57,735 nucleotides of DNA from a virus (taxonomy: Duplodnaviria; Caudoviricetes): IMG/VR virus record IMGVR_UViG_3300028837_001890, positions 1 to 57,735 of that record, one strand, 5' to 3'. Below are positions 34,456 through 34,520 of the stretch, in pieces; the first letter of the stretch is position 1, and each line of letters opens with the position of its first letter. The notes under the pieces are model-generated. The model saw nothing but the letters and a program-made list of their open reading frames with translations, was not told where the DNA came from and did no database searches. The position numbers and the translations under genes were made by a program.

Positions 34456-34520
34456 ACTATGGTTTACTGTACAGCACTTCACATAACTCTTCTGCGCAAT
34501 GCTAAGCAAAACTGCACTAG
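34456..34520 (-). ncRNA. pentamer-repeat guide-like RNA 3
   Basis: 11 x WGY-NN then tail ACCATAGT. Confidence 0.75.

Follow-up and report, generated by a model that had tools for sequence, protein, structure and literature searches.

A divergent VIPR locus in an AT-rich myovirus and a guide RNA that may address a tyrosine-integrase motif

A vipr gene flanked by pentamer arrays

The 57,735-bp DNA of IMG/VR record IMGVR_UViG_3300028837_001890, referred to here as the window, is a complete virus record (CheckV 100%) with a GC content of ~0.24-0.33. Because it carries terminase, portal, capsid and tail-sheath genes, the phage is a myovirus. On its minus strand, a gene of 195 codons and a stop (34620-35207) is flanked by three arrays of five-nucleotide units, and no gene lies between it and any of the arrays. 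Each unit joins a conserved triplet, W-G-Y, to a variable dinucleotide, NN. This architecture recalls the VIPR systems described in three 2026 bioRxiv preprints (10.64898/2026.04.26.720920, 10.64898/2026.04.26.720927, 10.64898/2026.10.15.759431). The third array, the subject of this analysis, is very probably the variable tract of a VIPR guide RNA (vrRNA).

On the plus strand, positions 34464-34520 read TT-ACT-GT-ACA-GC-ACT-TC-ACA-TA-ACT-CT-TCT-GC-GCA-AT-GCT-AA-GCA-AA-ACT-GC-ACT-AG, and the dinucleotides given for array 3 in a preliminary description agree exactly with these letters. On the minus strand, the array consists of 11 pentamers (AGT-GC AGT-TT TGC-TT AGC-AT TGC-GC AGA-AG AGT-TA TGT-GA AGT-GC TGT-AC AGT-AA), with CT before them and ACCATAGT after them. 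The guide dinucleotides of vrRNA 3 are CU GC UU UU AU GC AG UA GA GC AC, and then a conserved AA. This periodicity is far beyond chance. WGY makes up 4.9% of the trinucleotides of the window, and the longest run in 20 shuffles of it was 5 units. The window itself holds three long period-5 WGY runs, each of them at the vipr locus on the minus strand, with 15 of 17 units (35232-35314), 11 of 13 (34541-34603) and 11 of 13 (34456-34518) fitting WGY. A fourth, weaker run lies on the plus strand (24734-24771, 5 of 8 units).

The triplets are strongly constrained across the 37 units of the three arrays. The first position is A in 24 units, T in 11, C in 2 and G in none; the second is G in 36 and A in one; the third is C in 24, T in 12 and A in one. 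The NN positions, by comparison, hold 15 different dinucleotides. All three arrays close with a common 3' end of ~10 conserved nucleotides, AA-ACC-AY-AGT (AA-ACC-AY-AGU in RNA). Arrays 1 and 2 also agree in their closing units (AGT-TT AGC-xx AGC-AA ACC-AC-AGT) and may have arisen by duplication. Folding of the three arrays gave z scores of -1.3, -1.2 and -2.6, with no significant structure and no predicted pseudoknot, and an Rfam scan of the locus matched no family apart from tRNA.

The product of the 195-codon gene is a Vipr homologue with a Cas7-like RAMP fold. A Pfam search with the protein returned no match, its PHROG match is phrog_4652 (E 1e-11), a family of unknown function, and a phmmer search of PDB sequences gave a marginal match to the Vipr protein of Escherichia phage SUSP1, 36pp_D (E 0.35). 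An exhaustive profile search defined a protein family of 4909 representatives at E<=1e-3, and a 91-member family profile matched 36pp_D with E 9.4e-22 over positions 1-178 of 184. Folding of the single sequence yielded a pLDDT of 34; repeated with the 91-sequence alignment, the AlphaFold2 model reached a pLDDT of 96. Foldseek placed this model closest to chains from type III (Csm/Cmr) and type VII CRISPR effectors (E from 3.5e-5, TM ~0.5). The alignment shows conservation of a G-loop block (G171..F175-R176-P177) and of R135 in the thumb. Since the arrays flank a gene with a Vipr profile match and a RAMP fold, the locus is a VIPR system.

Several searches for relatives were made. A search of viral contigs with the protein found no close relative of the locus, none of the 46 pattern matches of an alignment search there was confirmed, and a word-index search for the locus returned two relatives only, on contigs of 913 and 1198 bp. 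Against phages, neither megablast of 12 kb nor tblastn of the 195-aa Vipr gave a match. Among other protein queries, P0005 led to the phages LESphi2 and Medea1, and P0038 led to the viral contig L206.

According to the preprints, Vipr protomers polymerise along a vrRNA of 9-16 YNNGG repeats, burying GGY and presenting NN. The presented bases pair with DNA so that every third target base, usually a codon wobble position, is skipped, and binding silences transcription (10.64898/2026.04.26.720920, 10.64898/2026.04.26.720927). In the SUSP1 structure, the first guanine of the triplet (G1) is read by H17 and D177, the second (G2) by R138 and W178, and the pyrimidine (Y3) by R179 among others (10.64898/2026.04.26.720927). 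In the alignment, these residues correspond to C16 and A174, R135 and F175, and R176 of the phage Vipr, respectively. By this mapping, the G1 contacts are replaced in the phage protein, and those to G2 and Y3 are kept. Among the 91 aligned sequences, the position equivalent to H17 is H in 44, N in 34 and C in 4, and that equivalent to D177 is D in 64, S in 13 and A in 8.

The residues at these two positions appear to co-vary with the first triplet base. The pair is H/D in LESphi2, which has three GGY arrays, and H/E in Medea1, which has a mostly GGY array; it is N/D in L206, where G opens 8 of 14 xGY units, and C/A in the present phage, where G opens 0 of 37. As only five systems, SUSP1 included, can be compared, the relation is suggested rather than demonstrated. 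Paired with the two substitutions, the W-G-Y scaffold represents a specificity switch open to experiment, and it might serve as an orthogonal guide handle.

In Pseudomonas phage vB_Pae_LESphi2 (OQ594955.1, 784-1785, locus L218), three canonical GGY-NN arrays lie upstream of the Vipr homologue P21_9, which is annotated as 'hypothetical protein' only; the arrays are 12, 11 and 12 units long, of which 10, 9 and 11 units fit G-Y. Medea1 (L219) has a Vipr-like gene with one array downstream. L206 (IMGVR_UViG_3300018080_000098), a 350-kb viral contig, encodes a Vipr homologue followed at 2080-2147 by an array in which 14 of 14 units fit xGY-NN, the first base being G, C, T or A.

The remaining features of the window's vipr locus, all on the minus strand, follow a simple order. 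A sigma-70-type promoter, TTGACA-17-TATAAT (35343-35371), lies upstream of array 1; it agrees with the consensus at 12 of 12 positions and is the best such site within 33700-35800. vrRNA 1 (35232-35314) comprises 15 WGY-NN pentamers (35240-35314) and the shared end ACCACAGT (35232-35239). Beyond the vipr gene, identified by its Vipr-family profile, fold model and phrog_4652 match, vrRNA 2 (34541-34603) comprises 11 WGY-NN pentamers (34549-34603) and the same end, ACCACAGT. vrRNA 3 (34464-34520) consists of a 5' CU (34519-34520) and its 11 WGY-NN pentamers (34464-34518), followed by its version of the ending common to the three arrays, ACCAUAGU (34456-34463). A cluster of four tRNA genes, tRNA-Ile(AAT), Lys(TTT), Asn(GTT) and Thr(TGT) (34108-34441), begins 14 nt after this shared end.

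No terminator-like site was found between vrRNA 3 and the tRNA cluster, which is probably co-transcribed with it, and the 3' end of vrRNA 3 could be set by RNase P cleavage at the downstream tRNA. The locus would then form a single minus-strand transcription unit in the order promoter, vrRNA 1, vipr, vrRNA 2, vrRNA 3 and four tRNAs. The anticodon AAT of tRNA-Ile (34365-34441), the first of the four, is unusual for bacteria and phages. Pfam and PHROG searches with the neighbouring open reading frames (ORFs; 35375-35677, 35703-37286 and 33817-34119) returned nothing, and no vap gene is recognisable among them. Elsewhere in the window, positions 10972-11467 hold 23.6 copies of a 21-bp unit (82% match) that may encode a Gly-X-Y-like repeat in a fibre gene. 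Adjacent tandem repeats at 20582-20777, a perfect 16-bp unit repeated 6.4 times and a 32-bp unit repeated three times at 95%, are iteron-like.

Decoding of the third array

Under the 1-nt-skip rule, vrRNA 3 decodes to GTnGCnTCnTAnCTnGCnATnAAnAAnGCnAG, that is, codon positions 1 and 2 of V-A-S-Y-L-A-(M/I)-(N/K)-(N/K)-A-(S/R). The decoded core is GTnGCnTCnTAnCTnGCnATnAAnAAnGC, to which the 5' CU unit adds AG. The preliminary description had arrived at this reading from the letters of the array, and its strand-and-frame rule, in which two bases are read, one is skipped and the result is codon-aligned, is the skip rule reported in the VIPR preprints. It had also stated that such a peptide follows the catalytic residues of a common group of integrases. 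This statement proved sound: HDLRHxxASYLAMNGA[ST] is a widespread tyrosine-integrase motif located directly after the HxLRH catalytic residues. Four of four ORFs tested (loci L187, L190, L191 and L193) match the integrase family PF00589, with E values of 1e-31 to 1e-33.

Sub-patterns of the decoded sequence were sought in viral, genomic and metagenomic collections. In IMG/VR, units 1-8 gave 23 matches and units 3-10 gave 6, with no integrases in either set. The pattern for ASYLAMNxA gave 31 matches there, of which 25 are in frame in ORFs of at least 100 aa and 7 are integrases. These viral integrases read HDLRH[STC][ACT]ASYLAMNGA[ST]L, and their loci have a GC content of 0.38-0.64. A control with the units in reversed order gave 11 matches, 3 of them in frame and none in an integrase. 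Among the 120 matches listed for the same pattern in species genomes, 109 are in frame in ORFs of at least 100 aa and 58 are integrases. A 20-base pattern, ASYLAMN[NK]A plus AG, matched seven metagenome contigs, six with integrases and one MgsA-like by motif. Matches are therefore concentrated in integrases (58 of 120 listed in genomes, 7 of 31 in viruses, 6 of 7 in metagenomes) and lie in codon frame, so that the outcome named in the preliminary description as refuting its reading did not occur. Set against the reversed-order control, these figures indicate a guide copied from a coding motif in its reading frame.

Integrases are not the only carriers of this motif. The other genome matches listed comprise 39 MgsA/RarA genes (KSNASYLAI[NK]xA), 4 RNase HII genes recognised by pattern and 19 others; one of these 19, L168, resembles a fifth RNase HII in motif and size and fell outside the pattern used. 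Pfam searches of sample ORFs agreed with these assignments (MgsA_C in 2 of 2, RNase_HII in 2 of 2). The peptide ASYLA[MI][NK]xA is thus conserved in three unrelated families, namely tyrosine integrases, MgsA/RarA and RNase HII, and a gapped guide with this peptide as its decoded product will match each of them. The phage itself offers no obvious target. Array 3 has no match in the phage genome at <=3 mismatches, and the best self matches of the three arrays (57%, 70% and 68%) are no better than those of shuffles and never reach 80%. A PF00589 gene was not found in the phage either.

Candidate targets of the third guide

We consider it somewhat more probable than its opposite that the true target of vrRNA 3 is the tyrosine integrase of a resident integrative element. 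The explanation as a whole, in which a phage VIPR guide is directed at the integrase box of such an element, appears moderately likely. By analogy with the SUSP1 complex, one 195-aa Vipr protomer would occupy each pentamer, with W-G-Y hidden and NN presented. NN would pair with double-stranded DNA, every third base being skipped, and the bound filament would block transcription. The predicted target is the box after the catalytic HxLRH in integrases of the HDLRHxxASYLAMN(G/N/K)AS group, carried on an island, satellite or prophage of the host, and silencing of the integrase would keep the element from excising. Because the guide letters spell a conserved integrase motif, a rival mobile element is probably what the phage silences.

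The best sites found lie in genomes of Chlamydiota and Legionellales. Among the genome matches listed, 2 of 58 integrases, L066 in a Chlamydiota metagenome-assembled genome (MAG) and L106, carry Asn or Lys at the Gly position and agree with the core at 19 of 20 bases. A search of 401 genomes of the phylum of L066 and of genome G001, allowing <=2 mismatches to the core, returned 22 matches in 21 genomes; the backwards control returned 2. Eight of these matches, including all four with <=1 mismatch, are integrases reading HDLRH..ASYLAMN[NKQ]AS. L066/L190, L187 and L202, and also L203 by per-unit scores, agree at 19 of 20 bases in the core and, once the AG unit is counted, at 21 of 22; L106 likewise reaches 21 of 22, and L191 and L192 reach 19 of 20 in the core. 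In L187, L190, L202 and L203, the sole mismatch is an Ala codon, GCn, against GTn in the guide.

The genomic setting of these integrases accords with mobile elements. tRNA genes lie directly beside four of the eight sampled integrases, tRNA-Asn in L191, L192 and L193 and tRNA-Met in L198, and the tRNA-adjacent loci are typical integrated islands. The Chlamydiota locus L191 (G197:C2:89560-109550) is an example: tRNA-Asn is followed by an integrase with ASYLAMNKAS, a 383-aa protein without a Pfam match and a DnaB-like helicase that carries AAA_25; an ankyrin-repeat protein is encoded farther along. The locus resembles an integrated island equipped with a replication module of its own. The N variant is not confined to one phylum, since codon strings for it (CASYLAMNNA, 18 of 20) were also found in 3 of 201 genomes from the order to which G431, a Legionella MAG, belongs. 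Only these two groups were sampled, the Chlamydiota phylum and the order of the Legionella MAG, and no enrichment is claimed.

A number of observations weigh against an integrase target. The exact 10-unit pattern has no match in 596 Gb of species genomes (185,579), IMG/VR and JGI metagenomes. The common Gly-form integrases match only 16-17 of 20 core bases among the matches listed because Gly (GGn) mismatches the second AA unit. Whether the UU unit might read a Gly codon through G:U wobble is speculation, as the structural and mechanistic preprints hold no mismatch data. None of the integrases examined matches the GT (Val) unit. Extra matches beyond the fixed 16 bases are no commoner than chance among the matches listed, of which 2 of 120 reach 19 of 20. 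The 39 MgsA/RarA genes listed come close, with 16 of 20 core bases in 6, 17 in 23 and 18 in 10, so that under the 80% match criterion given in the VIPR preprints both integrases and MgsA count as hits. By our arithmetic, a 19/20 match is expected ~0.08 times in the 401-genome sample and tens of times across the 596-Gb collection; as the phylum was chosen after the match had been seen, a 19/20 match alone is not globally significant. In addition, the skip rule has been shown by experiment for type II systems only, as far as the preprints describe it.

The other two arrays add nothing in favour of an integrase target. The preliminary description had proposed to check whether matches of array 3 co-occur with those of array 1 in one element or host, which would also reveal the host, and no such co-occurrence was seen in any locus or genome set examined. 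Around the integrases (7 viral, 10 genomic and 7 metagenomic loci, the genomic ones spanning up to ~10 kb either side), the best matches of arrays 1 and 2 do not exceed those of shuffled guides. Nor does either array have a site at up to 2-3 mismatches in the six best genomes. At <=3 mismatches, array 1 has no site in any of genomes G001-G003, of five others and of the 73 genomes from the family of G001; at <=2 mismatches, array 2 has none in five genomes.

Three other observations bear on the host. The phage terminase has relatives of only 27-34% identity in named phages of many hosts. Weak terminase similarity occurs in 3 of the 73 genomes of the Chlamydiota family of G001 (L220, L221 and L222, in G416, G001 and G262), where frames of 453-456 aa show 27-30% identity over the C-terminal third (E ~1e-6); these frames may be tailed-prophage remnants. 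The tRNA-Asn of the phage is unlike the tRNA-Asn genes adjoining the Chlamydiota integrases. A bolder version of the integrase explanation, which we judge unlikely, holds that the VIPR scaffold has been re-specified and carries a broad anti-integrase guide on invariant codon positions, with which a virulent myovirus immobilises islands or satellites inserted at tRNA genes of intracellular bacteria that live with amoebae. We know of no conflict between tailed phages and satellites in such bacteria, although no literature search was aimed at this point.

Three further explanations were considered. In the first, which is somewhat unlikely, vrRNA 3 is a VIPR guide whose true target lies outside the collections or in another gene family, and the likeness to integrases is a coincidence of the common peptide ASYLAMN. 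The lack of a perfect match in genome, viral or metagenome collections fits this explanation, as do the conservation of the peptide in three unrelated families, its 19 other contexts among the 120 genome matches listed and its presence in other viral families. Targets were likewise identifiable for only 20 of 41 SUSP1-clade guides in the account of 10.64898/2026.04.26.720920. Against a mere coincidence stand the 81-91% of matches that lie in frame in long ORFs, compared with 3 of 11 for the reversed-order control, and the 21 of 22 bases matched by the N/K variants of integrases; recombinase active sites are also a target class documented in the preprints.

The second explanation places the target in a host housekeeping gene, either that of the AAA+ ATPase MgsA/RarA or, with less likelihood, that of RNase HII (NILxASYLAMNRA), so that a host replication or recombination factor would be silenced. 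MgsA-type genes, at 16-18 of 20 core bases, make up a third of the genome matches listed (39 of 120), one of them (L125) matches 20 of 22 bases, and some carriers are AT-rich like the phage (L095, GC 0.26; L068, GC 0.30). The four RNase HII matches listed, the Pfam results for both families and the single MgsA-like metagenome contig among seven point the same way. Yet the codon before AS in MgsA is Asn (AA) in 39 of 39 genes listed, against GT in the guide, so that both bases mismatch, whereas the residue there varies in integrases (Ala, Thr or Cys). None of the 22 matches in the 401-genome sample is an MgsA site. A perfect site would be expected in a single-copy host gene, and none occurs in the 185,579 species genomes, although the host may be unsampled. 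Natural targets named in the preprints are mostly mobile elements and other VIPR systems, satellite guides also having host decoy sites.

We regard a housekeeping target as quite unlikely. The integrase is favoured over MgsA because it offers one more matched base, because the mismatched residue is variable in integrases and an invariant Asn in MgsA, because a single-copy host gene is expected to match perfectly, and because a recombinase precedent has been published. Given the variable residue before AS in integrases, a Val variant is one transition away.

The third explanation, that the array is no guide at all and, without pairing to any target, offers regularly spaced sites to an RNA-binding protein that assembles into rings or filaments, as TRAP does, or is a structural repeat at the DNA level, is very improbable: a period of 5, ~11 units and folding without strong structure (the z scores given above) recall TRAP, but the adjacent gene encodes a full-length Vipr homologue, the arrays are built as in the published systems (11-15 units that pair a conserved triplet with a hypervariable NN, and a shared 3' end), and their NN positions differ from array to array as those of guides would.

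Comparison with known systems

TRAP sites in Bacillus trp leaders consist of ~11 (G/U)AG triplets separated by spacers of 2-3 nt. The arrays of the phage resemble them in having ~11 triplets spaced by 2 nt. They differ in that no TRAP-like gene is present, the neighbouring gene encodes a Vipr homologue and the spacers carry information. A closer likeness exists to the Cas7 backbone of class 1 CRISPR effectors (Csm3, Cmr4 and type VII Cas7), with which the phage protein shares the RAMP fold. Unlike class 1 CRISPR systems, the locus has no CRISPR array and no other cas genes, and its guide has a period of 5 with two read bases rather than a period of 6 with five.

The RNA-guided class and its skip code were published in 2026, and the present locus is a divergent addition rather than a new kind of system. 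The closest comparison is with the type II VIPR system of Escherichia phage SUSP1, which consists of Vipr, vap1 and four vrRNAs (PDB 36pp). Both systems are phage-encoded and have a Vipr RAMP protein of ~200 aa. In both, one vrRNA lies upstream of vipr and the others downstream, the vrRNAs comprise 9-16 pentamers with a conserved triplet, a hypervariable NN and a shared 3' end, and the decoded targets are wobble-aligned coding motifs with no self-target.

The differences from SUSP1 are equally clear. Its triplet is G-G-Y (canonical YNNGG), whereas the phage has W-G-Y, none of its 37 units opening with G; H17 and D177 are replaced by C16 and A174; and direct protein similarity is marginal (phmmer E 0.35). 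SUSP1-clade vrRNAs have a pseudoknotted 3' tail, in contrast to the conserved end of ~10 nt without a predicted pseudoknot found here. The Methods of 10.64898/2026.04.26.720920 list NNNGG, YNNNG and NNNNG as alternative repeats, and the Y-NN-W-G units of the phage fit the YNNNG class, to which the xGY-NN units of L206 are also akin. Unlike those of L206, the first positions of the phage triplets are A or T in 35 of 37 units and never G. VIPR loci are said in the same preprint to contain 'typically' a vap gene. The present locus, with no recognisable vap and a tRNA cluster right after the last guide, adds a minimal layout that also departs from that of SUSP1.

The proposed target has its nearest parallel in SUSP1 vrRNA4, which is reported to target the active-site region of a satellite serine recombinase and to block excision (10.64898/2026.10.15.759431). 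Short gapped guides on conserved peptides match several unrelated families at 80-95%, and a firm call of the target therefore needs the host and its elements. With this proviso, the analysis suggests tyrosine integrases, at the box by HxLRH, as a second recombinase class among VIPR targets, parallel to the experimental serine-recombinase case. Like SUSP1 vrRNA4 on the recombinase of the F5 satellite, vrRNA 3 would read the codon-determining positions of a recombinase catalytic core, so that escape would need an amino-acid change, and the proposed effect in both cases is an immobilised element. The two differ in where they would bind: the SUSP1 guide addresses, by experiment, the strand just upstream of the catalytic Ser of a serine recombinase with an 18-bp footprint, and the guide of the present phage is predicted to address, with 10-11 units, the box after HxLRH of a tyrosine integrase.

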